Positions 9,079-64,000 of a stretch of DNA of 64,000 nucleotides are shown here, one piece after another. The notes under the pieces are model-generated. The model saw only the letters and a list, made by a program, of their open reading frames with translations. It was not told the DNA's origin and ran no database searches. Origin of the DNA: Heptranchias perlo (taxonomy: Eukaryota); assembly GCF_035084215.1 (NCBI RefSeq), contig NC_090353.1, forward strand, positions 31,868,001-31,932,000, written 5' to 3'. A program made the translations under genes and the position numbers. Each line of letters opens with the position of its first letter. Position 1 is the first letter of the stretch.

Positions 9079-9117
9079 TTCACCTGACGAAGGAGGAAGC
9101 CTCCGAAAGCTTGTGAA
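9079..9117 (+). ncRNA. Minimal type I hammerhead ribozyme motif (Penelope type)
   Basis: TTCAC-CTGACGA-A-GGAGG(AAG)CCTCC-GAAA-GC-TT-GTGAA: CUGANGA and GAAA cores, helix II, helix I TTCAC/GTGAA, and palindromic AGCT in place of helix III. Confidence 0.75.
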
Positions 9118-19122: not shown

Positions 19123-19133
19123 TTGCCCCATAC

Positions 19134-19402
19134 CTGACGCTCCTGATGATGAAGTACACCACCCCGAGGCCGCTGATGCCGAGCAGCACCCACAGGGCCC
19201 GGCGGATCACCGACTTGTCGGGGTATCCGTCATGGGGGTGCGTGGTGCTGTGCCCGGAGCCGCTGCTGTTGCGGGCCGTGGTGTTATTGAGGCCGGGGGC
19301 CGGCTGGCCGGCCTCCGATAGTGAGAGGGACAGGCAGAGAGCGGCGGCCAGCAGAAGAGACGCGGGGCCAAGAACCGGGACCGAGCCGCCGCCGAGTTTC
19401 AT
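19134..19402 (-). CDS. FAM174C: FAM174C-like single-pass membrane protein, coding exon 1 (signal peptide, Ser/Thr-rich ectodomain with N-glycosylation sequons, TM helix)
   Basis: ATG at 19402 gives MKLGGG...LLLAAALCLSLSLSEAG...NNTT..NSS...RRALWVLLGISGLGVVYFIIRSV. Donor AG|GTATGG at 19134/19133 is phase 2 and joins exon 2 in frame. Confidence 0.88.
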
Positions 19403-19520
19403 CCTCCAGGTGCTTTCCGTCAGATTCCTGTTTCTGGGCCCGGGGGAATTTCACACCGTGACACCCACGCCACAGGAAAGGCGCCACACACAAAATCCTC
19501 CGGGCTACAGCAGGCAACCA
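19140..19520. promoter_or_regulatory. CpG island over FAM174C exon 1 and 5' UTR/promoter
   Basis: Locally GC- and CpG-rich (ggcggatcac, gcgggccg, cgagccgccgccg) in a CpG-poor background, overlapping the start codon. Confidence 0.65.
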
Positions 19521-30270: not shown

Positions 30271-30674
30271 AATATTAAAACAAATTATCAGCAAAAAAAA
30301 AGGACTGAGCTCTCCTGTAAATCTCATACCTACACCCTCTCACTCTCTGGGCTCCTCTGTAAATGACGATCTCTCCTTGCCTGTCTTTGATATATTCTGT
30401 GCTTTGATATAGATTAGAGGTCGAGCAACTTAAAGTTCCGCAAATCAGCTCAGAAGGGACAAACCAGGTTTAAAAAAAATAACAATATTATACAGCTCTT
30501 ATAAAACCAGCATTGTGGACATGGATTGAATTGTTTGTACATTTTCTGGGACACAGTGTCAAGAAATTCACAGAAATACAAGAGTTCTCATGAAATACCA
30601 AATCTTGCATTCTAGATGTAAAAGTATGTCCTATCAGGATCTTTCTTGATAGAATTATCTGTGGGTCATTCAGT

Positions 30675-32165
30675 TTAATCCTGAAAGCGATGCAAGAGTT
30701 CACAGGTCTTTGTCTCAATGATTTCGTACATTTTTTTAATGCGCTTGTCACTTACAGTCCGCACGTAGCTCTCAGCATCCAACACTGCCATTCCATCATG
30801 GACGTCGCCCATTATAAGGAGGGGCCCGTCTGTCAGGGTTATGTTTGGACAGGGGCAGTTCCAGTCCATGTTTATCATTATCACCTCCAAATGCTTGAAG
30901 TCAAAAAACTTAAGCCCCATTTTCTCGTCCTTTAGCACCTCGTCCAGTGTAAATCTGGCAACTCCAGAATCTTGTTCCTCAACGATCTCCGTCACCCTTC
31001 CCACAATAACGTAGTCACTTCTGCAGAAGCTGGGAACGATCTTGTGACGAGGCTTGCAGGCTTTGCACAGTTGGTTTTTAGGAAAAGGACAGGTTTCCTC
31101 ACACACCTCCTTGCTCTCAAAATTATTCTTGTTCCCCTCACAGCCGCCGTAAACAAAAGCGTGGCATTGCTTCATCAGGGAGTTGTAAGCCCACCGAGCC
31201 TCCCACATCTTGCAGGGACCCTGCACCGCGGGGAAAGTGCAGATATTGACTGTCTCATTGATACAAGCCAACCTGCACTCTTCATACGTCTCAAACCGGT
31301 TCTTGCTCCCGTCACAGCCTCCAAACATGAATGTTGAGCACGTGCCCTTCTTATGGTCATAGAACCATCTAACATGTTGGCGGCCACATTCCCTCTTGTC
31401 CGGATCTTTGAAGCACTCTCCAGATGGTAAAGGCTTGGTCTTGCTGGGTGTGCTCTCTCCTGAATGTTCTCGTTTGATGACTGATAATGGGAAGTCTGCT
31501 CTGAGAAGCCCGGCTGCATTCCTTGCAGTGCACGTGTAGATCCCTGCATCCTCCTGCTGGGCGTTGTAAATAACTAGCTGACCGATGTTGGTGACCACCA
31601 CGTTAGCGTACATTTGATCAGGTCTCATGATGATATTTTCGTGGTAGTCGCTCTGTTTCTCCCATGTGATGTCTGGCCTAGGACGCCCACTGACGTCACA
31701 GTGAAAGCTCACCGTGCCTCCAATATAGACGGACTGGTGGAACGGGTTCGTGTAGAGAGCTGGAGGGATGGAGTCTTCCAATGAGGTTGTTGAGATTGGG
31801 TTTATAGTGGTTTCCAAAGGCTGTGGGCTGGTGTTGGGCCAGGTGATGTGATACCTGCAAGTCACAACGGTCAAGCTAATGCCTCTGATGCAGGCCTCTG
31901 CATCCATGTAACATTTGTTGTAGTAGGTCAAGCCGTCCGAGGCACAGGTGAAATTCGGCTCCTTCTCGCACCTGTCCTTGCACTTACAGACGGGCTGCCC
32001 GTCCCAGATATCGCACTCCGAACCTTGCTGAGTGCACACGATCCTCTCACACGTCGCCTCTTTGGGAAGGTCCAAGGACGCTAAGCTGCCATCTGCAAAC
32101 CTTGCTGCCACACAGCTCTTCAGGCCACACACGTTCGTGCAGCATTTCTCAAAGTTCTGACAATC
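30675..32165 (-). CDS. WFIKKN1: WFIKKN1 (GASP-2) copy A, exon 2: rest of WAP, follistatin/Kazal, Ig, Kunitz x2, NTR
   Basis: Acceptor tttcag|GAT at 32166/32165 gives DCQNFEKCCTNVCGLKSCVAAR..., uninterrupted to TAA at 30675. WFIKKN1-type rather than WFIKKN2-type motifs: PPALY, GGTVSFHCDVSGRP, RPDQMY and C-terminal CELLHRFQD. Both Kunitz domains keep six Cys. Confidence 0.95.
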   Translation of the reverse strand, partial: DCQNFEKCCTNVCGLKSCVAARFADGSLASLDLPKEATCERIVCTQQGSECDIWDGQPVCKCKDRCEKEPNFTCASDGLTYYNKCYMDAEACIRGISLTVVTCRYHITWPNTSPQPLETTINPISTTSLEDSIPPALYTNPFHQSVYIGGTVSFHCDVSGRPRPDITWEKQSDYHENIIMRPDQMYANVVVTNIGQLVIYNAQQEDAGIYTCTARNAAGLLRADFPLSVIKREHSGESTPSKTKPLPSGECFKDPDKRECGRQHVRWFYDHKKGTCSTFMFGGCDGSKNRFETYEECRLACINETVNICTFPAVQGPCKMWEARWAYNSLMKQCHAFVYGGCEGNKNNFESKEVCEETCPFPKNQLCKACKPRHKIVPSFCRSDYVIVGRVTEIVEEQDSGVARFTLDEVLKDEKMGLKFFDFKHLEVIMINMDWNCPCPNITLTDGPLLIMGDVHDGMAVLDAESYVRTVSDKRIKKMYEIIETKTCELLHRFQD

Positions 32166-32809
32166 CTGAAATCACAATGGACACAACAGTTACTTCAATG
32201 GGAACGGGCTGATTACCGATCTCTGATAGGTTCCTAACCTTGCTTTTTAATAAGGCACTTCATTGATCTACTGAAATCAACATACAAATCAAAAGCACCG
32301 CACGTTGTTTGACTATCTACACTAGTTTCAACGATGTTGTCAACATTATTTAAGCCACAAGAGGGTGGAATTTCCTGTGTATTTACACCCAGAGACACAT
32401 TGCAATTGGGCAGTAGCACGCAGAGTAAAAGGTCGAGGAAACTCGGGCACAAGTGCATTACACCTGAATTTCCTCGCTCTTTCACACCCATCAATGATCC
32501 CTGCACCTGAACATATCTCAGCTCATTATATTGGCTCCGCCCCTAGGCTAAAAAGCTGTACACACGGATTTCTTGCAGTTACACTGGTTCAAAATGAAAC
32601 ACCACCCACTGTTTGAATATATCTACAATAGTTTCATCTTCTGAACATTATTTCATTCCTATTTCCCCCAATGACTGGGCGCAATAAATCACTGCCCCTT
32701 GTAGTTCCGAGCCACAGATACCAGGAAGCCCCTGGGTTAGATCCTCAGTCAGTGCATTAGTTGGGAGACTACAATCGGCTTCACTTAAGGAAGGGGGAAA
32801 GAAAATCAC

Positions 32810-33200
32810 AGGGACAGGAGTAGGCTATTCAGCCCCTCGAGCCTGTTACGCCAGTCAATTAGATCATGGCTGATTTGTACCTCAAACTCCATTTACCTGC
32901 CTTAGCTCTACATCCCTTGATACCCTTACCTAACAAAAATCTACCGATCTCAGTCTTGAAGGCTTCAGTTGATCCCCAGCATCCACAGCCTTTTGGGGGG
33001 AGAGAATTCCAGGTTTCTACTGCCCTTTGTGTGAAAAAGTATTTCCTGATTTCCCTCCTAAATGGCCTAGCTTTAATGTTAAGATTATGTCCCCTCGTTC
33101 TTGATTCCCCTATCAGAAGAAATAGTTTCTCTGTATCTATCCTATCAAATCCTTTTAACATTTTAAACACCTAGATCATATCATTCCTCAATCTTCTATA
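32810..33200 (-). mobile_element. CR1 3' fragment in the WFIKKN1 copy A intron
   Basis: FKMLKGFDRIDTEKLF..SRTRGHNL..FFTQRAVETWNSLP. Confidence 0.87.
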
Positions 33201-35466
33201 ATTTGACGTCCCTAGGAACTTCGCAATCAATGAATTACTTTTTAAGTGTCGATGCCATTGTTTTGTAGGCAAACGTGGCAGCATGTTTTCACACAGCAAG
33301 TTCGAACAAAATTAACCCTAATCAATTTCGTCCATTAAACTTCAAGTGAGCTGCAAATTAGACACGTGTCCAACAACTGAAAAGGTGGCGGAAGCAGACT
33401 CAATAGCAACTTTCAAAAGGGAATTAGATATATACTTGAAAAGGAGAAATTTGCAGGGTTATGGGCAAAGAGCAGAGGAGTGGGACTAATTGGATAGCTC
33501 TTTCAAAGAGAGACACAATGGGCTGAATGGCCTCCTTCTGTGCTTTTTGATTCTAACTCCCTCAGTACCGAGTTAATCAAGCTGTCATTTCCACATTATT
33601 AAAGATATCGGGTATGGAATCTCTCTGTTACACAGTTAAGTGGAATCATCGATGACCCAAGTCAACAATTTAATGCTGGAAAACAATGACAGAAATTCTA
33701 GTCCTTCAATCTTCCCGGCTGTGCAAACATCCACTCGCTACACACCAGCGTCACAGGATACTAACAGATGTACAGAGGAAAGCCAAAGCTGTTTAAGCAG
33801 CATAATCAAAACGAATGATCTGGATCTGTGTTTTGTGGAGAAATGGTGGGGTAGATGTTTCGTCTTCATGGCCTGGACGGTAACCTGGCAAAGCCTTTCT
33901 AGAACCTACCCGGTTTTCATCCCTTTGATTTTAATGGCTTCTATAAAGTGGGAGGGGGTGGGTGCTATTCGCTCCGCCAGGTTATCACCCAGGCAGTGAA
34001 GGTGAAAATCACATCCCATACGTTCACGATTTCGTTATGCATGACACACAACAACAACGACAACTTGCCTTTAAATAGCGCCTTTAACATAGTAAAATGT
34101 CCCCAAGGCGCTTCACAGAAGCGTAATCAGACAAAATATGACACAGACAAAATATCTTCCCCTCCAGTGACTTTGAACCACAGATCACATGAGCTGAAAG
34201 CTGGTAAATTTGTTGCCCCATCAACTCTTTCCTGATATTACATTTTAATCGGACTGGACAGCGATATTAAGCTGGCGGTATAACTCGGGTCCAAGTCGCT
34301 GTAAGCGCAAAAGAGTCTCAAACTGCCTTCAGTTCTGATGAAAGGCACACTCTCAAAACTTGTGTCTTTTTCTCTTTCCAGATGCCGTTTGTTCCCCAGC
34401 AATTTCCTCCCTTTATTTCAGATTCCCAGCGTTTGCAAGTTTCCTTTAATCAAACTCGGTATATGTAATATCACTGCACCCTTTGACCAGAGAAGATTAG
34501 ATCCCTACGGTCAGTCAGCTGTGGTTCAGTGGTCAACACCATCGCCTGTGAATCAGAAGGTTGTGGGATCAAGCCCCACTCCAGGGACTTGAGCACAAAG
34601 CCTAGGCTGACATCTCCAGTGCAGTACTGAGGGAGTGCTGCACTGTTGGAAATGACGTCTTTTGGATGAGACGTTAAATCGAGGCCCAGTCTGCCCTCTC
34701 AGTTGGACGTAAAAGATCGCATGGTACTATTTCGAAGAAAAGCAAGGGAGTTCTCCCTGGTCAATATTCATCCCTGAACCAAAATCACTAAAACAGATTA
34801 TCTGGTCGTTATCACATTGCTGTTTGTGGGAGCTTGCTGTGCGCAAATTGGCTGCTGCGTTTCCTACATTACAACAGTGACTACCCTTCAAAAGTGCTTC
34901 ATTGGCTGTAAAGTGCTTTGCGACGTCCTGAAGGCGCGATATAAATTAAAGTCTTTCTTTCTTTTCCGTGACTTGTCCCATATTCTAAGCACAACATTGG
35001 TAATAATATTCAAAAAGACCGAGTTCTATTATTACTGAGCAGCAAGAAATTCCACTGACCGAAACTGGATAGCTCTGTCACACCTGGCATTGCTCAGTAC
35101 ACGTTAATGTAATCGGTAAATTGCTCAGAAAGCGCAAGGATCTAAACTGGAAGCTTACTGCAGAGCTGTATCTAATGTGTGGCAGATCAGATAAAAACTC
35201 TTCCGTTTCGACAAAGTGCCCTTATTCAAACTGAGTTGCACAAAAGCGAAAATTAATAAACGACAATTTTCAAGCAGACATCTCCTCTTTAAACATTGAA
35301 GGAAGCCAAGCTGAGAGAGACGACTGTTTGACGCTGAAATTTATGCTGAAAAGCACTTTAGAAAAGGATTCTGCAGCCTTACAAACAAGCAATGGCTTAT
35401 ACTGCACTGCTTAGATCGCAGTAATCTGTTAGGATAGATGTATATTACAGCACTTGTACATTCTAC

Positions 35467-35736
35467 CTCATCAACGTTGCATTCCCTCTCGCAGGTGCTC
35501 TGTGCGTCCACCCACAGTCCTGGATTGAGATGATTTGGGCAGGCGCTGGGGTGGGAGAGCTTTCCTCGGGGGAGACCAGTGCCCTGAGTCAGACCCAACA
35601 AAGATAACAACGCCAGCACGGTCACCAGAGTCCTGGGCTGAATTCCGAATCTCCTGGTTTTCCTCACAAGCATCAATCCCGATCCACTTCTGCTGCACAC
35701 CAAGAAATAAACACATCCACGCAAAAACCCCGGCAT
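35467..35736 (-). CDS. WFIKKN1: WFIKKN1 copy A, exon 1: signal peptide and first half of WAP
   Basis: ATG at 35736 (alternative in-frame ATG at 35673) ...SHPSACPNHLNPGLWVDAQSTCERECNVDE. Phase-0 donor GAG|GTAGAA at 35467/35466 matches exon 2. Full protein 586 aa from the first ATG. Confidence 0.92.
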
Positions 35737-35779
35737 TTTTATGCCCAGTGCAAAAAGGTCCCCCAAACTGTGTTCTAAC

Positions 35780-36005
35780 TTTTTAAAAAAGTTTACTAAG
35801 TGAGTGGAAAGTCAGCAATCAGGCAGTTAAAAAAGGCTGTTCATTGGGTAATGAGGCATAGAGGACAGTCTGTAACCCGAGTAGTGTCCATTGAAATGGT
35901 ATAAAGTGGAAGTGTCAGTGTGAAACTTTTTGACCCAAACCTTTTAGCCTGACAGTCAGGAAAGCCAGAAAAAACATACCGGGGATCTAGCAAATCAAAC
36001 AGAGG
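35780..36005 (-). promoter_or_regulatory. Proximal promoter/5' UTR block of WFIKKN1 copy A, conserved with copy B
   Basis: Reverse complement matches ~61655-61900, for example ctcgggttacagact.tcctctatgcctcattacccaatgaa.agcctttttt, which includes a CCAAT motif. Confidence 0.6.
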
Positions 36006-36865
36006 ATCCAGTTTCTCATTCAAATAATAATTAATGGAATGCATCTCCCAGAAATACAATATCAAATATAATTGTTTTGTAGCTATTTTTAATTGTGTAC
36101 CTAAATCTAAGATATAAGGTCATATCCAGATAGAATTTAAAGCACAGAAACAGGCCACTCGGCCCAATTGGCCTATGCTGTTGTTTATGCTCCAGACATG
36201 TCGCCTCCCTTTCTATTCCTTTCTCCCTCACGTACTTATCTAGCTTCCACTTAAGCTTCCCCTATGGTACTGAGCCGTGCAGATCTATTACAGATTTAAT
36301 CCATTTACATCTGCAAACAATTTCAGTAATAAAAATAACTGAGGAGGATGTTGGAGGCAATAGGAACATTTTGTGCAGCGTCCGAAATGACTTACTGGGT
36401 AAAGGCGCCAGATGCCATGGTACTGAGTCACACAGGCTGGGCAAGTCTCATGGGTGGTCCCTGATGTGCGGTGAGTGAAAGGGCACTTAAGCTACAAGTC
36501 TAGCGTTGGTGCAATGCAGCATCACTTCGATGTTGTAGTGCTAGTGAATATGCAGCCTAAATTACGCTCCCCCATGGGGAAATGGATGTAATCACAGCCT
36601 GATAAATTTTACATAGGTAAATTCTATTATGAAGTGGATATGGGAATTTATAACGGAAAATGTTAACAGGAAGCGCAAACAGATGTAAGATTTTTACTAT
36701 AGAAAAACAATTGCATTTATATAGCACCTTTCACGACCTCAGGACGTCCCAAAGTGTTTTAGAGCCAATAAAGTACTTTTGAAGCGTCACCGTTGTAAAG
36801 TGGGAAAAGGGGCAGCCAATTGTCGCACAGTAATGTCTGTGATGTTCGTCGAGGGATAAATATTA

Positions 36866-50239: not shown

Positions 50240-50695
50240 CTGAGGGGCTAAAAGGATTAAATTATGAAGACAGGTTGCATAAACTAGGCTTATATTCCCT
50301 CGAGTATGGAAGATTAAGTAGTGATCTAATTGCGGTGTTGAAGGTGATTAAAGGATTTGATTGGGTAGATCGCGAGAAATTATTCCCTCTGGTGGGAAGT
50401 CCAGAACGAGGGGGCATAACCTTAAGATTAGAGCTAGGCCGTTCAGGGGTGATGTCAGGAGCACTTCTTCACACAAAGGCTAGTGGAAATCTGGAGCTCA
50501 CTCCCCCCAAAAAGCTTTTGAACGCTGGGGGTCAATTGAAAATTTCAGAACTGAGATTGATAGATCTTTGTTAGATAAGAGTATTAAGGGTTACGGAACC
50601 AAATCAGGTAGATGGAGTTAAGATACAGATGAGCCATGATCTAAATGAATTGCGGAACAAGATCGAGGGGCTGAATGGCCTACTCCTGTTTCTAT
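50240..50695 (+). mobile_element. CR1 3' fragment
   Basis: LHKLGLYSLEYGRLSSDLIAVLKVIKGFD..REKLFPLV; same subfamily as the 27476 copy and a copy at ~42510-42810. Confidence 0.85.
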
Positions 50696-52932
50696 ATAAT
50701 CGTTACAATGTACAACTCTCTGGAAGTGTAAATTCTTCAGTGAGATGAACATCAGCAGAGAGTGAAAGACCCAACAAAGTGCCTTAACCTTCAACCTCAG
50801 AAAAACACTTCCCATTGCACCACTGTGAATTGTTCTGGTTTCCACCCCAGCTATCCCTTATTGTCTTTGAATGAATCCATTAATTTTGTGCTGAATTATG
50901 TTTTTTTTTTACTGTGGTCTTATTACAGTGCTTAAACTCATTTCATTTAAGGCTGTCACAGCCATCAGAGTAGACGTTCATCCCATCGGTCCGCAAAAGA
51001 TTTGAACTCAGGTCCCAGAGGTAAAAGAACAATGTTCTAAGCCATTGCCTCCTCTCTGCAAAATCAATCCAGTCATTAATTTGCACTAGATTGATAGCAG
51101 TGTATCATTAGATCAATTGGACGCTTTTCAGGTTTGACAAGAGCAGTTTGGGGAGATTTCTCCAGGGTCCTGGTGCCATCCGTAGCAGTGGCCTGCTCTA
51201 AAGTACTCGCTTGCACTGTCGATTAAAGTACAATACTAAATTTTTAAAATTCTTTCAGATTGCATTTGGTGCTGTCCGCAACGTTTCGTAAAGAAAGAAT
51301 TGTCAGGCGCCCCTGCGATCTAGTGAGTAAAAAAAGCATCCAGCATAACATACAGATCAGCAGGTCCCAGATTCAATCTCCAAGGGAGGCAGCTGGGAGC
51401 TCAGTACCACTGGGATACAGAGAACCAGAATCCCACTCGGACCACCCACTTACAGTCGCCATCCAGTGACCCCCTATTGGAACATGAAGACTGTATCGAC
51501 GTTGGACGAGAAGGAAACTGGACTTTAGTGTGATGCTCTCTACAGTCGAAAGGCCTGCTGGCACTCACTGTCTAGGCACCTGATGCTCTTTTCAAGGGTG
51601 GGTTGCTAGCCTAGTAGGCCTGACTATTCCCACTGCCTGACTTAATCAAAATATAACCTTGTATGAACTTTAAGCCTTCTAAGCACTGAATTACATGAAT
51701 AAGTCATGTAAACTATAATGGAAAGGCCATACTCTGGTTTGCTGATATACAGTACCTAATGCTCTTTTGTGATTGCAGTCCAGCTAGCCCATTTTAGTCG
51801 CTTCCTGCTGGCTCAAAGGAGTAAAGGCTTGCCTCTGAGCCAGTACAGAACAGGAAAGTCCCCAGGTTCGATCCCTGGCCTGTGCCGAGTTAGTTGGTCT
51901 CAATGGGGCAGGAGTAAGAATGCTACAACTGGCCTTAGTGCCCCTGAAATAAAGATTAGACAGGGCTCCTGCTCGGTGTCTGACTGGAAGAGCATATACA
52001 TGGGCATCAAGTGAAGTGAGGACCAGGCTCGGGCGTAATGCTCCTCCTCAAGCAGCTTGACACATTCATTGACAAGATGTACAGACAAACAATGGCCACT
52101 TGAGCGAGGTTATATAGTGTGACCTCTGCCACTAGGTGTATGTGTCCCAACGAGGAAGTCAACACCTGCAGGAAGGGGGAGGAGGAAATTGGAGGAGGGG
52201 AAAAACTATACCATAGCACCAGAGTTCTTTACACTGTGGGTGACTCAGTCAGAAATAACAAAAGCAGTAGCCTGGGATGACTCTTTATTACACACTGTGG
52301 TAATAACCTTTTATGCCCTGAATTGGCCAGTGAAAGCATTAGCTTTAAATAACCATGGTAGTTTGGCTTTTTGCCCCCAATCTGAATGTTATACTGCAGG
52401 ATTAGAGCTCTTTGTTTGACTAGGATACCCTGAATCAAGAAGTGTTATATTACTTCTGTTAATGAGCTATAATGTTCATCATCGGAAACACGCAGGAGTT
52501 CATTTTGGGGGCAAATCGAAGATGGATTTTAAAAGCTGTGATAGATATTCCAAACTCAATTCAAGTTCCCTCTAAGCAGTGAGGGCCAGAAGCTGGTAGC
52601 TCAGGGAGTTGCTGGTTAACGTTCACCAGTATAAAGGAGTGGTGCGCCAGGCCTTAATTGGCATTGTTTCAACCAGTAAGATGTCATATTTTAACAATTC
52701 CGAAACCAAACAGCCCCAGAATAAGAGCATGAGAGTAGATGGGGAGAAGGACGGGAGAGGGGGTGGGAAACATGGCTTGACCCTGTGTGTGCTATTTTTA
52801 GTGGACTGCTCCCTGTAGTTGAATAGTCACTTACTTGGGACAGATAACAGAGAGCTAACATTTTTTGAAGAGGAGTGTAGCGGAGATAGGGAGAAAAATT
52901 ATTTTTTAAAAAACCGCTTAAGAAACTTCCAG

Positions 52933-53457
52933 CAGTGTTGTCCGATACATTTAGCCACATGTGGTGAATTGTCAATCTAGATTTGGCTAATTAGATTTCT
53001 GATCAGTAAATAAGAGCCATTGGGCATGTGATCTCAATACTCATATGCTCACCGCATGTGCATGTGAACTTTAACCTTTTTGTGCGTTTGTTGGTAAAAC
53101 TGGAAGATGAAAAGCAGAGTGTGAGAGAGTTTTTTGATCGTTCTGAGAGCATTACTTCCTTGGTTACTGATAAGTAAATATACTCACATGAAGTACATTT
53201 ACCTGCATTGTGTGCGTGTGTGTGTGTAGCTGTTATCTACCAAAATTAGTATATGTGGCTAAAACGGTGTCGCCGTAGCCACACATAGAAACAGGAGTAG
53301 GCCATTCAGCCCTTCGAGTCTGTTCCACCATTCAATTAGAACATGGCCGCTTTGTAACTTAACTCCATCTACCCACCTTGGTTGCCCAACTCTTAATACC
53401 CTTGCCTAACAAAAATCTATCAACCTGTGGCTAGTCAGCAATATCTATTGGACAGCT
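52933..53457. mobile_element. Second copy of the same MITE, with a CR1 tail inserted at ~53285-53424
   Basis: cagtgttgtccgata...gaagtacatttacctgcattgtgtg...ggctaaaacggtgt...ctgtggctagtcagc is the reverse complement of 29533-29915. Confidence 0.72.
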
Positions 53458-54589
53458 CCAAAATATAGACCCAATTCGGGGTGGGAAAGGAGTGGGTAAG
53501 CTCCCCACTCCATTTTAACTGTCACACGCCCATCCCCCCCCCCCCCGCCCCCCCATCCCCCACCCCGGCCTGGTTTCTGCCAGGCGATGGGGAGTTGAAA
53601 TCGAGCCCAATGTGTTTAGGAAGGAAAAACACAGGTGGGAAACTATAGTTATAAGGAGAGACTTGAGATACTGGGAAAGAGTAGGGGAGTGGGACTAATT
53701 GGGTAGCTCTTTCAAAGAGCCAGCATAGGCACTAGGGGCTGAGTGGCCTCCTTCTGTACAGTATGATTCTATGATTCTATTTCCACTGGAGCAGCGAAGC
53801 TAAGAGGAGATTGAATAGATTTACCATAGTGCTTCTAAAGTACTTAATTCGCTATAAAACGCTCTGGAATGCCCTGAGATCATGAAAGGTGCTATATAAA
53901 TGCAAGTTCTTTCTTCAAATGTATTTAAAATTATGAAGGGTTTTAGTAGGGGGAATAGAGGAAGATTGTTTCCTCTGGTTGGGAAGTTAAGGGCTCGGGG
54001 TCATCAACTTAAAATCATCACTAAGAGAATGAGGAGAGAAGTTCGGAGAATTCGCTCTATGCAGGGGGTTGTTGGAGCGTGGAATGGAGTCATTGAGGTA
54101 GAGACCATTGTGTCTTTTAAGGGGAAGAGTAGATAAGCATTAGTAGCAGAGAGTTACGCGAAGAGACCAGGGCCGTAAGGTTAGTTTTGGATATCACGAG
54201 AAAAGAGCCCGCACAGACATGAATGGCCTCCTTCTCTGCTGTAAACTTCCACTGTTAACAAAATTACAATATAGTCAGTAATTAACTATTAAATTACAGT
54301 CTAGCATTAAAAACAGAGGAAAGGCAACATCGATGGGTCGCCATGATAACCAGGACTAAGTGCTGTATGAAGAGATTCTGCATCACCTTTGGGGGAGGCA
54401 GTGACTCACGCTGGGGTACAGTTCCATCGGCACCAGTTACCCTCAGAATCGTGGTGAGCCGAGGCAATGCATCAGCTAGCTTTTCAACCATGAGGGTCAC
54501 TGTGGTCAAGCTCGATCCTGCCACCCCACTCCCTACAGTACATCTGCAAATACACACTAGACAGCAATTGTAAACAGAAAAGAGAGAGG

Positions 54590-55710
54590 GCAGGGGTTAA
54601 AGGAAGTTACTCAGACTGGCAAAAGTGGTGATCCAGAAGGATTGGTGCTGGGACTACTGTTGTTCACCATTTACATAAACGATTTGGATTCGGGAATCGG
54701 AAATACAACTTCAAAATTTGCGCACGACACTAAATTAGGGGATATAGTTAATACCAAGGAGGACTGTGTCAAAATACAGGAAGACATTAATAAACTTGCA
54801 GAATGCAAGCGTAATTGGCAAATGAATTTCAATGTAGATAAGTGCGAGGTATTACATTTTGGTAGGAAGAATAAGGGGACCACATATTGCTTGGATAATA
54901 AGAGTCTAAATGGGGTGGAGGAACTGAGGGATCTGAGAGTACAGATACACAAATCACTAAAAGTAGTGACATAGGTTAATAAGGCCATAAAAAAGCATTG
55001 GGGTGCATTTCCAGAGGGATGGAATTGAAAAGCAGAGAAGTTATGTTAAACTTGTATAGAACCTTGGTTAGACCACACTTGGGAGTGATATGCACAGTTC
55101 TGGACTCCATATTACAGAAAGGATATAGAGAAGCTGGCAAAGGTGTGAAAAAGATTTACCAGGATGATACCAGAACTGAGAGGTTACATCTATCAGGAAA
55201 GACTAAACAGCCTGGGGCTCTTTTCTCTAGAAGTGGAGATGCCGGTGATGGACTGGGGTTGACAATTGTAAACAATTTTACAACACCAAGTTATAGTCCA
55301 GCAATTTTATTTTAAATTCACAAGCTTTCGGAGGCTTCCCCTGAGGGGTGACCTGATAGAGATCTTTAAGATTATGAAAGGGTTTGATATGGAGCAGATA
55401 TTTCCACTTGAGGGGGAGACCAGAAATATAAGATAGTTACTAATAAATCCGATAGGGAATTCAGGAGACACTTCTTTACCCAGAGAGTGGTTAGAATGTG
55501 GAACTCGCTACCACATAGAGTAATTGAGGCAATTAGCATAGATGCATTTAAGGGGAAGCTAGATAAACACATGAGGGAGAAAGGAATAGAAGGATATGGT
55601 GATGTGGTTAGTTGAAGTAGGGAGAGAGGAGGCTCGTGTGGAGCATAAACACCGGCATGGACCTGTTGGGCCGAATGGCCTGTTTCTGTGCTTTACATTC
55701 TATGTAATTA
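54590..55710 (+). mobile_element. CR1 LINE ORF2/3' fragment, degenerate
   Basis: LLFTIYINDLDSG..SKFAHDTKLG and LYRTLVRPHL motifs with frameshifts; contains the Penelope insert. Confidence 0.9.
55233..55339 (-). mobile_element. Penelope pLTR fragment nested in a CR1
   Basis: Near-identical to 8942-9048. CR1 sequence (ttttctctagaa ... ctgaggggtgacctgatagag) continues on both sides. Confidence 0.85.
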
Positions 55711-55899
55711 GGTGAGTGATTTTCACCTACCTAGCCTGCGGATGCTGAGGACAATTGTGACAGCAATTTTGTCCATGTGATCTCCTGGACTGGTTTCAAT
55801 CGGCTGAGGGGGTTAGGGAGGAATTTTACAGAGTATTTTTTCCCTTTTTGGCCCTGTTTTTTTTCTCTGGTACTTTTCCTCTCCCAGGAGAATGCATAG

Positions 55900-57385
55900 T
55901 ATCATAATACAGCACAGAAGGGAGGCCATTCGTCCCATCATGCCTGTGCCGGTTCTCTGAAAGAACTCTCCAATTAGTCCCATTCCCCTGCTCTTTCCCT
56001 ATAGCACTATAAATTTTTTACCTACAAGTATTTATCTAATTCCCTTTTGAAAGTTACTATTGAATCTGCTTCCTCCACCCTTTCAGGCAGTGCATTCCAG
56101 ATCGTTACAACTTGCTATGTAAAAAAATGCTTCCTCGTATTGCCTCTGGCTCTTTTGCCGATCACCTTAAATCTGTGTCCTCCGGTTACCGACCCTTCTG
56201 CCACTGGAAACAGTTTCTCCTTATTTACTCTATCAAAACTGTTCATGATTTTGAACAACTGTATCAAATCTCCCCTTAACCTTCTCTGTTTCAAATGCCT
56301 CCGTGGCCTCGCTCCTCCCTATCTCTGTAACCTCCTCCAGCCCTACAACCCTCTGAGACCTCTGCGCTCCTCCAATTCTTGCCTCTTGCGCATCCCCAGT
56401 TTTAATCACCCCACCATTGGCGGCCGTGCCTTCAGTTGCCTAGGCTTTAAGCTCTGGAATTCCCTCCCTAAAACCTCTCCGCTTCTCCACCTCTCTCTCC
56501 TCCTTTAAGACGCTCCTTAAAACCTACCTCTTTGACCAAACTTTTGGCCACCTGTCCTAATATCTCCTTATGTGGCTTGGTGTCAAATTTCGTTTGATAA
56601 TCGCTCCCATGCAGCGCCTTTGGACATTTTACTACGTTAAAGGTTCTATAGAAATGGAAGTTATTGTTGTTGAAAGGACAACAACCTCACCTTCTCCAGT
56701 CTCTCCATATAACTGAAGTCCTTCATCCTTGGTACCATTCTAATAAATCTCTTCTGCACCCTCTCTAAGGCCTTGACATCATTCCTAAAGTGTGGTGTCC
56801 AGAATTATAGAATCATAGAAAGGGTACAGCACGGAAGGAGGCCATTCGGCCCATCGAGTCCGCGTCGGCTCTATGCAAGAGCAATCCAGCTAGTCCCACT
56901 CCCGCGCCCTGTTCCCGTAGCCCTGCACAGTTTTTCCTTTCAAGTACTTATCCAGTTCCCTTTTGAAGGCCATGATTGAATCTGCCTCTGCCACCCCCTC
57001 GGGCAGTGCATTCCAGATCCTAACCACTTGCTGTGCAAAAAAGTTTCTCATCTCACCTTTGGTTCTTTTGCCAATCACCTTAAATCCATGTCCTCTGGTT
57101 CTTGACCCTTCCGCCAATGGGAACAGTTTCTCTCTATCTATTCTGTCTAGGCCCTCCATGATTTTGAATACCTCTATCAAATCTCCTCGCAACCGTCTCT
57201 GTTACAAGGAGAACAACCCCAGCCTCTCCAGTCTATCCACATAATTAAAGTCCCTCATCCCTGGAATCATTCCAGTGAATCTCTTCTACACCCTCTCTAA
57301 GGCCTTCACATCTTTCCTAAAGTGCGGTGCCCAGAACTGGACACAATACTCCAGCTGAGGCCTAACCAGTGTTTTATAAAGGTTG
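55900..57385 (-). mobile_element. Nested CR1 3' fragments (~55900-56806 and ~56807-57385) with an L2 3' end inserted at ~56291-56672
   Basis: RGDLIEVFKIMEGLDRIDREKLFPL..SRTRGH on the minus strand; L2 motif LQPYNPLRPLRSSNS..IGGRAFS on the plus strand. Confidence 0.88.
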
Positions 57386-57991
57386 GCTGGGTGGGAGGTG
57401 TTTAAGGAAGTGTCTGTTGATAATGCTCCGGCCATCGTAATGTGGGCAGCATGCTTGGTGGACTAGCTGGTCTTTTCCTGCCCATCAGTCTGGTGTGTTC
57501 GTAACCGCAGCAGAGATCAACCAACTCTGCAAGGACTGAGGGTTGAAACTTGGTCTTCCCACTGCACAGCTTAGAAGCACGCTGGGTATTACATTCACTC
57601 CCTGAGCCTCTGGAGAAGCTTGCAGGTGTCAGCGTTACCTACAAACTGTGAGTGCCTCTTTAAAAAAAAATCGAGTGTTACTTATAAAGGTTACAAGCTC
57701 CATTGAATCTTTTCCCAGCAAAACGGAGAACTAGAGAGTTGCTTTCAGAGTCAATTTGCAGTGAATTTCAACCAAACCCGGCAAGCTTGAGGCTTGAGGC
57801 CTCCCGCGACCAACAGGGACTGCAGGGAATGGTGCGTATACTTGGCACAGGGAATAATATTATTTAATTTTATAAGTTTCCTTTGTTTTATGGTTTAATT
57901 CCTTATTAATTGTGCCACGCTAAAAAAAGGGGGCACCTTTGTTTGTTTTTTGTTTGGAGTCTCCTCATGAAAGAAAGACTGATTTGCATTT

Positions 57992-58284
57992 GATGTGGAG
58001 ATGCCGGTGATGGACTGGGGTGGACAAATGTAAGGAGTCTTACAACACCAGGTTATAGTCCAACAGCTTTATTTAAAATCACAAGCTTTCGGAGGCTTCC
58101 TCCTTCGTCAGGTGAGTGTGGGATTCCATAAAGGTACAGCATATATAGTCAGAGAACAATGCCTGGTGATTACAGATAATCTTTCCAACTGCCCGTTATC
58201 AAGGCAATCAAAGGAGTTGAATAGTGTTCAGACAGAGAAACATTACATACAAGACTACTGAATACACAAACGGTCAGAACACAA

Positions 58285-58321
<37 letters not shown>

Positions 58322-58442
58322 TCCGAAAGGCAGAGAAAGAGAGAGAATGACCAGTTGTATTAAAAACAGATAACTTTTTTTTGCTGGTGGGGTTACATGT
58401 AGCGTGACATGAACCCAAGATCCCGGTTGAGGCCGTCCTCAT
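57992..58442 (-). mobile_element. Penelope 3' fragment (end of GIY-YIG ORF, 3' UTR, pLTR with hammerhead motif at 58079-58115)
   Basis: Homologous to 19797-20220 (gaacccaagatcccggttgaggccgtcctcat). It interrupts the tail of a Deu-type SINE. Confidence 0.88.
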
Positions 58443-61400
58443 AGCGCTTTTCATGACTTCAGGACGTCCCAAAGCACTTTACGGCCAATGAAGTATTTTT
58501 TGAAGTGCAGTTGCTGTTGTAATGTAGGAAACGCGGCAGCCAATTTGCGCACAGCAAGCTCCCACAAACAGCAATTTGATAATGACCAGATAATCCGTTT
58601 TAGTGATGTTGGTTGAGGGATAAATATGGGCCAGGTCACCAGGGATAACTCCCCTGCTTTTCTTCAAAATAGCGCCGTTGGATCGCCACCTGAGAGGGCA
58701 GACAGGGCCTCGGTTTAACGTCTCATCTGAAAGACAGCACCTCCAACAATGCAGCACTCCCTCAGTACTGCACTGGAGTGTCAAGCCTAGATTTTACGCT
58801 CAAGTATCTGGAGTGGGACTCGAACTCACAACTCAGAGGTTGCAGTGCTACTCACTGAGTCACAACTGACACAATGAGTTTATTTAGAAAAGCATAAAAA
58901 GAACACTTGTGTTAAAACATTAATATTTAGCAATTTTCTTTTTATGCAATGAAACATTTTAGCCAATTAATGGCAAAAGCAGCCTAGAAGAAGCAGCTGC
59001 GAATAAAAAGTGGGCAAGAAAGGGTTAAAGAGCATAAAACACGTGCACTCTGATTTCTTTTTAAATGTGTCAAGAGAAGGTTTTCAGCCACAGTTTCAAC
59101 ATCTATCGACAGAATAATCTATTTAAAATCTTTCACACCTGATAGCTTTGGAGAGCCATCTCCGGCCAGACATGTTGAGTCTGGCACACTAGAGATAAGA
59201 AATTAATGCCGTCCAGGATTTAACCCACAGATCACAGTCTGTCACAATCAGCAGCTCCGTTAATGACACATCTCCGAGTCGATCAGATGTGAAATTTTTT
59301 GAACTGATTGCTTCAGCTGATCAATACTGCAAACTATACTATAGGCAGCAGTCATTCAAGAAAGAAGGGAAGAATTCGAATTTACACCGTGCCTTATCAC
59401 ATCTCTTGGAAATGCTCCAAATCGTCTCGCATACAGTGAATTGCTTTCTGAAGTATAATCACTGTTGTTGTGCAGTTGAGCGTGGTAACTAGTTTATGCA
59501 CAGCAATGTCCCCCAAACCGCTATGAGATGATTGATTAATCATCGACTTTGGTGGTGTTGGTTGAGAGAAGAATGTTGGCCAGGACACCGAGAGAGACCC
59601 CCCCCCGCCAACTCTTTTTTGAATGGTGCCATGGGGTTGTTAAAATCCACCTGAGCCGTCGGAACAGGCAGATGGGCTCTTGGTTTAATGTGTTTAATCA
59701 AAGGGACATCACCTCAGTCAAAGCCACACTTCATTAACACTGCACTGGAGTGTGAAATATTTTGAACTGATTGCTACAACTGATCAATACTGTAAACTAT
59801 ACTTTGCAGCCCTGCAACCCTCCGAGATCTCTGCGCTCCTCCAATTTTGGCCTCTTGTGCATCCATGATTTTAATTGCTCCATCATTGGCGGCCGTGCCT
59901 TCAGCTGCCCAGGCCCTAAGCTCTGGAATTCCCTCCCTAAACCTCTCTGCCTCTCTACCTCTCTCTCCTCCTTTAAGATGCTCCTTAAAACCTACCTCTT
60001 TGACCAAGCTTTTGGTCACCTGTCCTACTATCTCCTTATGTGGCTCGGTATCAAATTTTGTTTGATAATTGATCCTGTGAAGCACATTGGGATGTTTTAC
60101 TACGTTAAACGCACTATATAAATGCAAGTTGTTTTTGTTATTACCTTAAATCTTGTACTCAAGTCGTGAAGTGGGGTTTGAACTTGCAATCTTCTGGTGC
60201 AAGTGCTACCAATTGAGCCAAGCTGAAGAAAACTGTCCTTAAGATTATACCCAAGCTGCAATGTGGTAGCAAACAAGGGCAGCAGACTGCAAGTTACCTC
60301 ATGGCGTGTCAGTGCATAACCTTTACTAACAGTGCAACTTCGTAACGAAAGGGGCAAAGTTCAACACATTGTTCTCTTTGCTACTCCAATAATAGAGAAA
60401 CAATTTGCCTTCTGCTGTCTGGCAGCTTAACCCCGAGGGGTTTCATTTCGTATGGGAATGAACTCGGTACTCGGCTTGCGAAAAATTCTATGTTGCTAAC
60501 CCAAAAGGGCTAACAACTGAGTTAAAATAGTGCAGGAATTTAAAACAAATGCTTTAAGCCAGTGCACTATCAGAGAAAATGAAACCCCTCAGTGTCAAAG
60601 GTTCCTTTTTTGGCGTCCCTGGGTTAAAGAAGGAGAAAACAATCAGCCAAGGTTGAAAGTGTGTGTATGTTGGGTGAGGACACCACAGCAGGGCTATGGG
60701 GAAAGAGTGGGACTAACTGGATAGCTCTTTAAAAGAGCCGGCACAGGCACAATGGGCCAAATGGCCTCCTTCTGTGCTGCATGATTTTATGACAAGATTG
60801 TGCTCAACTGTCATGCCCTCCATAGCCAAAAAGCTTGATGTCTAGGCCCATGTAAGAAGAATGGGCTCTTGGGGAGCACCGCCCTAGTACCCATGGATTG
60901 GATGGAGAGACGGACAGACAGACAGACTTGCAGATATATTGCGCCTTTCACAATCTCAGGGCATCCCAAAACACTTTAGAGCCGATTAAGTACTTTTTGA
61001 AGTGTTGTGATTAGGGTAGATGATTGCCAAAAGCTGCGTTGTTGGTGCGTAACCCGTACTAAACACATAACTCACCAACTAAAGGAACAAAATTCAGATC
61101 AATAATTCAATTATCATTTCACTATCGCAGAGTGCCTAAAAACATAACACTCATTAAATTGTGTTAAAGAATTTGACAAAAGGCAATATAATTGTAATGT
61201 TTGGGTAGGAGAAGGTCACTGGCTATCCAGTCTACACTTCCAAACCTCCCCATAGCTTCCTTACTGTGATTCTGGAATTAACAGCCCTGATTACCATTTA
61301 CTTACAGGAATTCATCCAGACCTTCTTTGCAAAAAGTTGTTACAGTTTTCTGTTGGCCGGTAATCAGTTTCAGGTCTCCATCATTCTTACTGGAAAAAAA

Positions 61401-61654
61401 AATCCTATTTTATTTTGACTTTAAACTGTGGCCCTTATGTTGTGTCTGAAGCAAGAATTTTCCTGAATCTAATTTCTCCACACCCTTAAAGGCCTCTACT
61501 AGTTTCCCCCTTCCTCATGGTCAAGAAACGCCTAATTCTTTTTTTGTGGTTTTGCTACATATTTAAAATATCCACACCTCTGAATTTAAAGTTCCGGTCT
61601 AATTGTTATGTACACTGATCTCCCCTATCCCGGCTATCGGTTTGTTTGGTTAAA

Positions 61655-61900
61655 AACTTCTGTTTGAAATGCCGGGTCCCCCCCCCCAGCTCATGTTTGC
61701 CCAGTTGCGTTGACCAGACGGGGATGTAGTCTGGGTCAAAAAAAGTTTTTGATGTTGAAACGCAGACACCTCCCACTTCCACCATGTGAACCGAGTCTGC
61801 TCGGGTTACAGACTCTCCTCTATGCCTCATTACCCAATGAATAGCCTTTTTTTACTGCCTCATCGTTAACTTTTCAATTCTCTTAGTAAACTATTTTTTA
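61655..61900 (+). promoter_or_regulatory. Proximal promoter/5' UTR block of WFIKKN1 copy B
   Basis: Inverted homologue of 35780-36005, with CCAAT in tacccaatga. Confidence 0.6.
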
Positions 61901-61984
61901 TTTTTTATTAAGAAAAGTTTTTTTTTTTGGGTGGGGGAAACTTTTTTTTGTTGCTGGATTTAAAACCAAAACCAAAAAAAAAAA

Positions 61985-62245
61985 ATGCTGGTTTTTTTGC
62001 ATGGATGTGTTCATTTCTTAAAGCGCTGCAGAAGTGGATTGGGTTTGATGTTTGTAAGGAAGCCCAGAACAGCCAGAATTCAGCCCAGGACCCTGGTGAT
62101 CGTGTTGGGTTTGTTGAGACTGACTGAAGGCGCCAGTCTCCCCCGAGGAAAGCTCTCTTACCCCGGCGCCTGCCCAAACCAACTCAATCCTAACCTGTGG
62201 GTGGACGCACAGAGCACCTGCGAGAGGGAATGCCACGCCGACGAG
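61985..62245 (+). CDS. WFIKKN1: WFIKKN1 copy B, exon 1 (exon 2 not in the window)
   Basis: MLVFLHGCVH...LLRLTEGASLPRGKLSYPGACPNQLNPNLWVDAQSTCERECHADE, then donor GAG|GTAGAA at 62245/62246. 62 of 87 aligned residues are identical to copy A (hand count). Frame is intact. Confidence 0.88.
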
Positions 62246-64000
62246 GTAGAACGAACAAGCGCTGTAATGGACATCTACCCTGAAATAATTTTATTTGGTT
62301 TCATCAAAGCGGCGATTGATCACAAGTGGGGAATGGGGGGGGGGGGGAGAAGAGTTAATAACCTTTCTTATTCATTGTGTAGCCAAGAATTACTTGTCTG
62401 TAAAACTCCAAATTTCATATTAAGTTCCACGAAACCAGATTCTATTTGGGACTCACTCACGGTCGACTTGGTATTTTTTTGGTGTATGAAACTGACAAGG
62501 GCGTCAGTTTCTGCCTCAGTGTAACTGAGCACATGCCTTCTCTTTGTCTGGTGTTTCCCCCTACCTCGAAATGGAAGAGTTTTATACCTGATCTGACAGA
62601 TGCTGTTACTGGATACAACCGTTTTAGGTGGATCAGGATTTCAGTGTCACTTTCAGCAAGCGGAACACGCGTGAATATCGCCAAATGCTACACTTTTTGG
62701 TGAACTTAAAGTTTCTTCTCCATCTGTGAGACTTCTCAATTGTAGTTCAATCACATTGTGCAGCACAGGGTCATCGGCGACTGCCCTTTTGCGAATGTTA
62801 TTCTCTGCACAGTAGCATTGAGGGGAAGACTCCCAGACGGGTAGACTTCTGCAGAGTTTAAACCCACACTCACGTTCCTTTCATGTTCCAGAGTTATCCC
62901 ACAGTATGAAACCAATTGACCCCAATGCTCTTGCTGTCACAGACAGTTAAATCCTCCCGCAATTGGGAATTTCGCTCCCTCCCTCCTCCCGGCGCTTGAA
63001 GTCATCGCTTTGTGTCTGGTCACCAGTTGGGCTCAACTTTCGCCGGTCGGATCTTTTCCTGACACCAGCGATACAGCCACGAGAGGATGGTAAATCACTC
63101 AGTGATAACTTCCTAACGCGAGTCAAGCCATAGCAGGAAACTTGGCTGGACACCCCCCCACCTCTAGCCCAGGTGGGCCGAGGCCAATCGTAGCGCCTCA
63201 CCTGCTGCCCTAGCTAACTCAAGCCAAACCTGAAGCCTTGGTGCTCTGGCTCTGTACCACAATGGACATTGCACGTACACACTGAGCTTCCAGGGGATAA
63301 GACGGGGTGTTTCCTGATCCAGATAGCTTTGCTACACTTGTTTAACGTGCTCGTAACAAATTGTTGTCTGCAATTTATGACACCCAAAATTACACCCATT
63401 CGTGTACTCTTTCTGCCTATGTCCATTTACACCCGAATTTCCTGCCAATCTCATTAACAAACACGAGAAGGTAAAAATGGGCCGAAACAAATGGAAATCC
63501 GTCTTGATTCATTGCAAATTAGATGGATTTCTTTCATAAAATAACTTTTTGGGATATAGGAAATGTGGTAAGTGTAACAGGCTTGGGAGCAACAGGTGAC
63601 TTTGGACCTCTGGTTCCCAAAGCTCTCCACCACTGGGGGTTTTCCTCACCTCATGTCTGGGTCTGTTGTGGATTCATTGATAGAGATTGATCGCTACGAT
63701 TAGTCAACAACTCCATTCTCATTGTATCATGCAACTACCAGGATGGTGGTAGGCGAACTAGAACCTTGCTCTTTTTTTGTCTAGCAATTCCTATGTTCCT
63801 AAACAATCGGGGCCCAAGGAAAGTTCTGAACTCTCACCATATATTCCTTTTTTAAGTATGGAAATTAAAGTTTCAAACCATCTAACCATTATTCATGCAT
63901 ATTAGGCACAGCATGCAATCGTGGCAGCTTTTCAGTTTTTAATGTGGCTCATGCTGAAGTCGTCAAAATGAATTCAAAGAAACAGAAAATACACAGAGCC

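Follow-up and report, generated by a model that had tools for sequence, protein, structure and literature searches.

The stretch of the Heptranchias perlo genome analysed here (64,000 nt, hereafter the window) contains a complete WFIKKN1 gene on its minus strand (copy A) and, on its plus strand, the intact first exon of a second (copy B), the two lying head to head with their ATGs 26,249 nt apart; these gene structures, proposed in an earlier note made from the sequence alone, are confirmed. The coding part of copy A exon 1 (35467..35736, minus strand; 90 aa) supplies the leader with its signal peptide and the N-terminal half of the WAP domain. A 3301-nt intron bounded by a GT donor and an AG acceptor separates it from exon 2 (30675..32165, minus strand; 496 aa), which encodes the remaining WAP, follistatin/Kazal, Ig, two Kunitz and NTR domains, the frame staying open through to a TAA stop. 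Copy B exon 1 (61985..62245, plus strand; 87 aa) ends at a GT donor, and its intron (62246..64000, then beyond the window end, plus strand; 2787 nt in total) leads to exon 2 about 1 kb past the window (plus strand; extended coordinates 65033-66523; G000:C32:31933033-31934523; L006:3033-4523). This exon, which the earlier note had advised seeking by a rightward extension, is intact and has no internal stop. Copy B is spliced GT..AG in run X5 and in X8, from another organism, but not in the DNA run X1 (X5-X9 are RNA-like runs, none among those listed being recorded as RNA); B-type exon 2 letters occur in X5, X6 and X7. The exon 1 portions of two RefSeq proteins, XP_067824828 (P0133) and XP_067824829 (P0126), match exon 1 of copies A and B, respectively. 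Left of the pair and outside it, a FAM174-like gene, its first exon placed approximately at 19180..19450 (minus strand; PF06679, E 4e-4, under the curated cut-off), serves as a synteny marker, and an S1PR3-like gene adjoins the WFIKKN1 genes across cartilaginous fishes. The sole match in an Rfam scan of the window was tRNA-like.

Both proteins show the domain order of the family in Pfam (WAP, Ig, two Kunitz, NTR). Kazal_2 fell short of E 0.01 on P0133 and P0126, and the follistatin domain was recognized through a match to 6MAA (E 1.5e-37). The WAP match of copy B (residues 60-107) crosses the exon junction after residue 87, as in WFIKKN/GASP genes generally, which according to the consulted part of PMC3427181 have two exons and an intron that interrupts the WAP coding sequence. 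In this structure and in the order WAP-follistatin/Kazal-Ig-Kunitz-Kunitz-NTR the shark genes resemble bony-vertebrate WFIKKN1/GASP-2 (PMC3427181, PMC3906830, each as far as consulted). The earlier assignment to WFIKKN1 rather than WFIKKN2 holds: eight WFIKKN2 rows form a group (100/100) separate from 19 cartilaginous-fish rows, a distinct WFIKKN2 locus lies on C26 (92% to Chiloscyllium WFIKKN2), and exon 2 shares 77% identity with coelacanth WFIKKN1. Given the conserved follistatin domain and the relevant passages of PMC3427181, the shark pair would be expected to antagonise GDF8/GDF11.

Unlike their bony-vertebrate counterparts, the shark genes are tandem and inverted, and do not share a chromosome with RAB40C, PIGQ and METTL26. 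In human, WFIKKN1 lies between RAB40C and METTL26. The corresponding interval on C25 retains RAB40 exons and is flanked by METTL26-like and PIGQ-like genes, and a search of 190 kb of it, free of N, returned nothing for WFIKKN better than E 0.07; strict positional orthology to WFIKKN1 is therefore not claimed. A Channa gene model fuses Ras and WFIKKN. WFIKKN1 probably moved from the RAB40C-METTL26 slot to the S1PR3-like neighbourhood in early cartilaginous fishes. Alternatively, the C32 genes could be a third whole-genome-duplication copy ('WFIKKN3'), the true WFIKKN1 having been lost in cartilaginous fishes, a reading that the empty C25 interval and the separate grouping of the bony-vertebrate WFIKKN1 rows (94/92) would fit. 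Orthology predicts the same tree equally well, however, and two markers of the WFIKKN paralogon, RAB40 and the RH1-domain genes, occur on C25 and C26 but are missing from C32 (0/7 RH1-domain matches there), so that we consider a third ohnologue quite unlikely.

The inverted genomic duplication proposed earlier is supported by self-BLAST (35431-35916 against 62281-61765; 73% over 526 columns, E 8e-91) and by homology both upstream of the coding parts and in the introns. The 5' UTR/proximal promoter region of copy A (35737..35916, minus strand) is homologous to that of copy B (61765..61984, plus strand; delimited by self-BLAST and shuffle-tested alignment), the regions upstream of the ATGs aligning with a score of 142, where none of 300 shuffles exceeded 26. 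Thus the promoter homology of the earlier note stands in its proximal part; the distal part, 35917-36005 against 61655-61764, barely exceeds the shuffled controls (24; best shuffle 23). The intron match that it had placed at ~35185-35211 and ~62567-62596 is upheld, a remnant in the copy A intron (35180..35211, minus strand) being homologous to 62566-62598 (88% identity across 33 bp; score 44, best shuffle 31). Bidirectional pairs have start sites about 1 kb or closer on one promoter; the 26-kb distance between these ATGs, and a homologous upstream region belonging to each copy, argue against a shared bidirectional promoter.

Between the genes lies a non-coding inverted pair, whose left arm (42828..43452, plus strand) has an inner 517 bp at 93% identity and an outer 110 bp at 75%, and whose right arm (47231..48083, minus strand) carries a dispersed repeat inserted at 47744-47985. 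It is the third duplicated element in mirror order and completes the mirror layout of the locus; the intervening 43453..47230 (no strand assigned), which holds dispersed repeats, would be the centre of a degenerate palindrome of about 36 kb. None of the 18 open frames of at least 60 aa in this centre matched Pfam. The pair itself has two matches genome-wide (DNA search; 28-mer with at most 2 mismatches) and, because of this and the Pfam blank, transposon ends were rejected as its identity. We regard it as a candidate duplicated cis-element. The one shared intergenic control region inferred in the earlier note is conjectural; each gene retains a promoter of its own, homologous to the other, and this candidate element is itself present twice.

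The two genes are unequal in their similarity along their length. Exon 2, which supplies 496 of the 583-586 residues, differs at 3 of 1491 nt (99.8% identical; dS 0.0066), two of the differences being synonymous and one a T-to-K change at exon 2 codon 485, whereas exon 1 is 82% identical (dS 0.37) and its proteins match at 62 of 87 residues (71%), exactly the figure given earlier. Within the mature portion of exon 1, eight residues differ (dN/dS = 0.12/0.30). The introns are mostly unalignable, but their last 129 columns match at 127, and the homogenised block (30648..32454 in arm A, minus strand) contains identical runs of 101, 295, 983, 181 and 64 nt. On the 5' side identity declines across ~290 nt of intron (99, 80 and 64 per 100 columns), and on the 3' side it stops sharply 27 nt past the stop codon; beyond that point the 3' UTRs are unrelated, homology past the tract scoring 28, a value matched by 80/300 shuffles. 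A GC-bias signature of conversion is absent, since GC3 in exon 2 (0.624) is no higher than in exon 1 (0.62-0.63), WFIKKN2 exon 2 (0.70) or S1PR (0.70).

Collapsed reads would yield just such a near-identical 1.7-kb block, and no sequence record examined crosses a whole arm; the assembly or its polishing might then have written out twice one exon 2 that splices to either of two first exons, or have made two diverged exons alike. We judge this highly improbable. The first exons point in opposite directions, so a single exon 2 could not serve both, and the copies differ by three substitutions and an indel, with RNA-like contigs that hold the copy B 3' end bearing copy B letters. In run X1, possibly the assembly's own sample, a 1700-nt contig over the block has a depth of 13.1 against 7.0-8.5 in six listed unique flanking contigs, about double on what is a rough measure. 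The gradual fading of identity into the intron, the absence of N from 192 kb of sequence and the recurrence of the pattern in three further species likewise speak against an artefact. The earlier note had called the copies too diverged for an allelic or assembly artefact; that conclusion is supported, but the divergence it relied on (~71% identity) is limited to exon 1.

Copies A and B are both present in records of Heptranchias, Pristiophorus, Heterodontus and Stegostoma, so the pair is not narrowly lineage-specific, as the earlier note had supposed it to be. These four pairs are those among the matches listed (15 of 42 main-cluster members), the species of one protein, P0144, being presumed; that partner copies of Hemiscyllium, Rhincodon, Carcharodon and rays are missing among those 15 carries no weight. 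At the protein level, which is where species were compared (synonymous and intron homogeneity was measured in the Heptranchias genome only), exon 2 differs between A and B by 1 residue in Heptranchias, 1 in Heterodontus, 2 in Stegostoma and 1 in Pristiophorus, against 16-70 of about 496 residues between these species. In the exon 2 tree the copies are sisters within species in four of four pairs, all starred, and the data reject a clade of A copies (p-AU 2.5e-51). The exon 1 tree separates A (6 rows) from B (10 rows) with split support of 99/100, and a constraint uniting the two Heptranchias copies is rejected (p-AU 8.5e-7); this grouping by paralog points to one old duplication. Seven columns of exon 1 and none of exon 2 are diagnostic of the paralog. 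Topologies placing the duplication before and after the shark-ray split were both retained (p-AU 0.19 and 0.38), and a search with copy A exon 1 against proteins of 49-158 aa gave no A-type shark exon among the best 5 of 32 matches. The exon 1 trees used LG+G4 and a reduced row set, leaving out P0129 and P0130 (unrelated predicted N-termini), P0007, P0127 and P0146 (exon 1 missing), P0139 (intron read-through isoform), P0008 (second Latimeria model), three Logan proteins, the WFIKKN2 rows and some bony WFIKKN1 rows.

Exon 2 is well conserved among sharks, and purifying selection alone might be thought to keep its copies alike. This is scarcely tenable: silent sites and the intron flank are homogenised too (dS 0.007 against 0.37), and residues private to a species are common to both copies, numbering 5, 3, 3 and 38 in exon 2 (38 in the sawshark) and 0, 0, 0 and 0 in exon 1. 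Rather, the near-identity of exon 2 within species likely arises because one copy repeatedly overwrites the other by gene conversion.

Copy A could be decaying or silent and merely held open by conversion from B. Its exon 1 is the faster-evolving paralog (stem branch 0.20-0.26), that of copy B being slower and ancestral-like, and no copy A exon 1 contig was found in X5, X6, X7 or X9 at 92% likeness, although a contig blank is not silence. Exon 1 lies outside the tract, however, and is still open with all cysteines of its WAP motif in 6/6 A rows; the mature part bears the dN/dS given above, and the RNA-like run X9 joins an A-type 3' flank to exon 2. Decay of copy A is thus very unlikely.

Near-identical 1.7-kb inverted repeats also provide a permissive geometry for recurrent inversion, in which crossovers within exon 2 would flip the ~32-kb inner segment, re-pair promoters with 3' UTRs and contribute in part to homogenisation. 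In a second organism, a B-type exon 1 is spliced to exon 2 in X8; in X9, exon 2 runs on into an A-type 3' flank, and no A exon 1 was seen at 92% likeness. But these two runs come from different samples, and the contig in X9 starts at exon 2, which leaves its first exon outside the contig. In X5 the remaining A/B differences are still linked to the copy B 3' end. Weak evidence against flipping comes from accession order, which leaves a place for B between A and S1PR, the order seen in Heptranchias, in both Rhincodon (...870 and ...872) and Chiloscyllium punctatum (...369 and ...372). We view such flipping as possible but doubtful.

Taken together, the head-to-head pair of intact WFIKKN1 genes most likely reflects an old inverted duplication followed by recurrent gene conversion of exon 2 between the arms, to which we assign a probability of about 0.88. 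The duplication would have been a fold-back event centred at ~43.5-47.2 kb, preceding the split of squalomorph and galeomorph sharks, which occurred over 200 million years ago. Conversion would have become confined to exon 2 because this long, intronless and constrained exon alone stayed similar enough to pair, and would continue there, the short first exon and introns filled with repeats having escaped. A single myostatin/GDF11-trapping body (follistatin, Ig, Kunitz, NTR), with an identical ligand-binding part in A and B, would then be made from two promoters, with differing leaders and 3' UTRs, an outcome that would split expression and not ligand specificity. A bolder version, which we hold to be rather unlikely, would make the ~36-kb palindrome a 'two promoters, one protein' device kept by sharks for more than 200 million years: selection would retain both copies, conversion would also preserve a duplicated enhancer between the genes, and flipping of the inner segment would exchange the promoters and 3' UTRs that go together, among species or among individuals. 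If true, few two-gene conversion systems known from vertebrates would have lasted longer, and the locus would have changed chromosome early in cartilaginous-fish history.

The process has precedents. The mammalian pairs BMP8A/BMP8B, DDX19A/B and TUBG1/2 are under mosaic concerted evolution, with two copies in which some exons group by species and others by paralog over more than 100 million years; BMP8A/B is, like the WFIKKN1 pair, inverted and part of the TGF-beta pathway (PMC2720389, sections consulted). Unlike in such pairs, the shark tract is one exon covering 85% of the protein, in head-to-head copies separated by 26 kb, and unlike BMP8A/B the genes encode an antagonist rather than a ligand. 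The shark pair is likely the older, if dated to the shark crown by the age commonly given. In sharks, exon-limited conversion has been described for a local elasmobranch duplicate, sparc-L / scpp, also by split-tree logic; there the 5' exons were converted while the remainder diverged into a new protein (PMC9122587, in the part consulted), whereas in WFIKKN1 the 5' exon diverged and the body stayed constant. The consulted text of PMC3427181 reports additional GASP1 copies for certain teleosts and, from lamprey, three GASP2-related sequences; 'Callorhinchus' and 'chondrichth' do not occur in it. In mostly open-access papers, we found no description of the shark pair or its conversion pattern, WFIKKN appearing in the elasmobranch literature searched as a table entry for WFIKKN2 only. 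The novelty suggested earlier is accordingly partial: no paper on the pair was found, but separate 'WFIKKN1-like' RefSeq proteins exist for both genes in at least three sharks, a circumstance that the earlier note had itself named as counting against it.

The shark pair is thus a new case of a known, BMP8A/B-like process, and with both genes already in RefSeq the surprise is moderate. It offers a clean example of very long-lived, exon-limited gene conversion with exon 1 as an internal control, and the many shark assemblies lend themselves to mapping tract ends and rates. Whole-protein trees of shark WFIKKN1 would falsely imply repeated recent duplications, and short reads are unable to assign exon 2 expression to A or B. 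For the animals themselves, the pair suggests that sharks acquired another source of a myostatin/GDF11 antagonist under its own control, with implications for how cartilaginous fishes grow muscle and pattern the body axis.

The main feature of the two head-to-head WFIKKN1 genes is their mosaic identity, with exon 2 nearly the same in both and exon 1 diverged. Copy A is a complete two-exon gene on the minus strand (exon 1, 35736–35467; intron, 3301 nt; exon 2, 32165–30675). On the plus strand, a further exon 1, as claimed in the earlier note, lies at 61985–62245, and its protein is identical to that of copy A at 62 of 87 residues; its exon 2, which that note had proposed to seek farther right, was found intact about 1 kb past the window end, after a plus-strand intron of 2787 nt with GT/AG sites. 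The B exon 1–exon 2 joint across this GT..AG occurs in RNA-like contigs of runs X5 and X8 (the latter from another organism, hereafter organism B) and is absent from the DNA run X1; copy B is complete. Searched genome-wide at E 1e-10, exon 2 gave three matches (copy A, the intact copy beyond the window and a 67% match on sequence C26), and exon 1 gave the identical three loci; the one on C26 is WFIKKN2 (92% to that of Chiloscyllium).

Across exon 2, 3 of 1491 nt separate the copies, two of these changes being synonymous (dS 0.0066, dN 0.0008); for exon 1, dS is 0.37 and dN 0.17, and an alignment of the exon 1 regions gives 73% identity over 526 columns. The near-identical block spans 30648–32454 in the A arm and 66550–64753 (coordinates extended rightward beyond the window) in the B arm. 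Inside the intron its identity falls off, with 99, 80 and then 64 of every 100 columns matching as one moves outward, and it stops abruptly 27 nt past the stop codon, the 3′ flanks farther out being unrelated between A and B. The remaining intron DNA aligns only at dispersed repeats and at a common 33-bp remnant that scores above 300 shuffles, which upholds the intron homology claimed earlier; the promoter homology also claimed holds for ~180 nt upstream of the ATG (again above 300 shuffles), its more distal match being marginal. No rise in GC3 was found in the homogenised tract.

An assembly artefact was rejected on contig depth, on B's letters in RNA-like contigs and on the absence of N letters across 192 kb. 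A single 1700-nt contig of X1 covers the block at a depth of 13.1, against 7.0–8.5 for six listed unique flanking contigs, X1 being possibly the assembly's own sample and contig depth a rough measure. At the exon 2 sites covered, B's letters are found in RNA-like contigs at all three in X5 and X6 and at two in X7, and an X5 contig runs on into B's own 3′ flank.

The same pattern recurs in other sharks. Among the 15 of 42 main-cluster members listed, Heptranchias, Heterodontus and Stegostoma each have two ‘WFIKKN1-like’ proteins; a Pristiophorus protein, with a partner of inferred species, belongs to a second cluster. Both Heptranchias public proteins match the window's two exon 1 translations; the pair, of which the earlier note knew no description, is already in RefSeq as two genes. 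In comparisons of protein sequences only, A and B differ in exon 2 by 1, 1, 2 and 1 residues within species, as against 16–70 among these species; in the exon 2 tree all four species pairs are starred sisters, and a constraint uniting the A copies is rejected (p-AU 2.5e-51). The exon 1 tree splits six A-type from ten B-type proteins at 99/100 and rejects uniting this genome's two copies (p-AU 8.5e-7), a topology that independent duplications leave unexplained; these were rejected, as was selection alone, which leaves the silent-site identity unexplained. Exon 2 has 5, 3, 3 and 38 species-private residues common to both copies and 0 paralog-diagnostic columns; exon 1 has none of the former and 7 of the latter. 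A single old duplication, after which exon 2 was converted repeatedly, accounts for all of these patterns. Arm-to-arm conversion would keep the exon 2 copies together, acting there because exon 2 is the only long uninterrupted homology.

Mosaic concerted evolution is described for the two-gene pairs BMP8A/B, DDX19A/B and TUBG1/2 over >100 million years (PMC2720389) and for shark sparc-L/scpp (PMC9122587), and the shark WFIKKN1 pair resembles them. The pair is real and more than a plain duplicate, the process proposed for it being itself already known. Searches of the main text of openly available papers turned up no description of paired WFIKKN1 genes in sharks, of conversion between them or of a move of the locus. 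Public annotation of the locus looks unreliable: records P0129, P0130 and P0131 involve Scyliorhinus canicula and XP_043576621 models whose N-termini are unrelated, and the name ‘2-like’ is given to some shark proteins of WFIKKN1 type.

The pair is found in both squalomorph and galeomorph sharks, which puts its likely age at over 200 million years. Ray and skate proteins, among those listed, are all B-like, and the sole Callorhinchus exon 1 branches outside A+B (92/92, unstarred); neither duplication before nor duplication after the shark–ray split is rejected. At three diagnostic columns, B retains the residues shared with Callorhinchus and rays (S, Y and Q, with T in place of the S in one skate), which marks A as the faster, derived copy.

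The locus itself has likely moved. Human order is PIGQ-RAB40C-WFIKKN1-METTL26, and a Channa gene model fusing Ras and WFIKKN supports this neighbourhood in bony fish. Here, METTL26-like and PIGQ-like genes lie on C25 with RAB40 exons between, and those 190 kb hold no WFIKKN trace. RAB40 is restricted to C25 and C26; RH1-domain genes occur on C25 and on C26, 0.47 Mb from WFIKKN2, with none of seven matches on C32, the window's own sequence. The human 16/17 paralogon holds both GASP genes with MAPK8IP3/SPAG9 (PMC3427181). The WFIKKN1 pair is flanked instead by a FAM174-like gene and a single-exon S1PR3-like receptor gene (minus strand; L008:4070–5212, G000:C32 ~31.954–31.955 Mb), ~20 kb right of copy B, with relatives in Latimeria, Erpetoichthys and every cartilaginous fish listed; by position it may be the S1PR4 counterpart. 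Wherever both values are available for a cartilaginous fish (14 of 14), WFIKKN1-like and S1PR3-like records sit on contigs of equal size (a shared contig is not adjacency); their accessions are consecutive in Callorhinchus, one of the 14, and their contig sizes differ in Latimeria. Read most simply, these data place a move of the locus in the cartilaginous-fish stem, ahead of the duplication.

Once repeats are masked, a third, inverted duplicated unit is visible in the spacer (42828–43452 versus 48083–47231), the inner 517 bp being 93% identical and the outer 110 bp 75%, its right arm interrupted by an inserted repeat. This element occurs twice genome-wide and has no coding frame >79 codons. 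The units run exon 2–exon 1–element–centre–element–exon 1–exon 2, a degenerate palindrome of ~36 kb (centre 43.5–47.2 kb), which a fold-back duplication taking in an upstream element, a candidate enhancer, probably produced. The outer identity resembles that of the promoters; the much higher core identity points to constraint or to an older conversion tract separate from that of exon 2, and a younger local duplication may also account for the spacer pair.

Other features include a FAM174-like first exon followed by a long purine-rich low-complexity tract (~18600–19120) that keeps several frames open (together 18497–19450, minus); a 399-aa frame (20135–21334, minus) that resembles a Penelope-type retroelement end (reverse transcriptase tail, GIY-YIG-like motif), with no Pfam match at E 0.01; self-complementary stretches at 8973–9170 (~200 bp, 96%, with relatives elsewhere in the region) and 45943–46058 (116 bp, 87%); a tandem array of ~43-bp units (27140–27476 and 27904–28121) split by a dispersed repeat; and a weak tRNA match (11546–11623, plus, 34.7 bits), possibly a tRNA-derived SINE head. 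Beyond the window, a 673-bp direct repeat of 100% identity (extended coordinates 98161–98833 and 103662–104334, L009–L010; 5.5 kb apart) is a very recent insertion or duplication.

Exon 1 supplies the leader together with one half of the WAP domain, and exon 2 the follistatin and NTR domains. In PMC3427181 the WFIKKN follistatin domain binds GDF8/GDF11, and the NTR domain is proposed to bind the propeptide. Mature A and B differ at eight exon 1 residues and one exon 2 residue (leader end set by eye near A residue 52); therefore most of the difference between the copies lies in promoter, leader and 3′ UTR. In four runs (X5, X6, X7 and X9), no contig covers A exon 1 at 92% likeness. Within a 2111-nt contig of X9, an RNA-like run of organism B, exon 2 continues into an A-type 3′ flank; the contig starts one letter ahead of the AG at the exon 2 start, a point at which spliced transcripts of A and B would merge. 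This contig hints at A expression; a flipped arrangement in organism B, or a plain end of cover, also fits. For the pair as a whole, we predict one antagonist with divided or additive expression from two copies.
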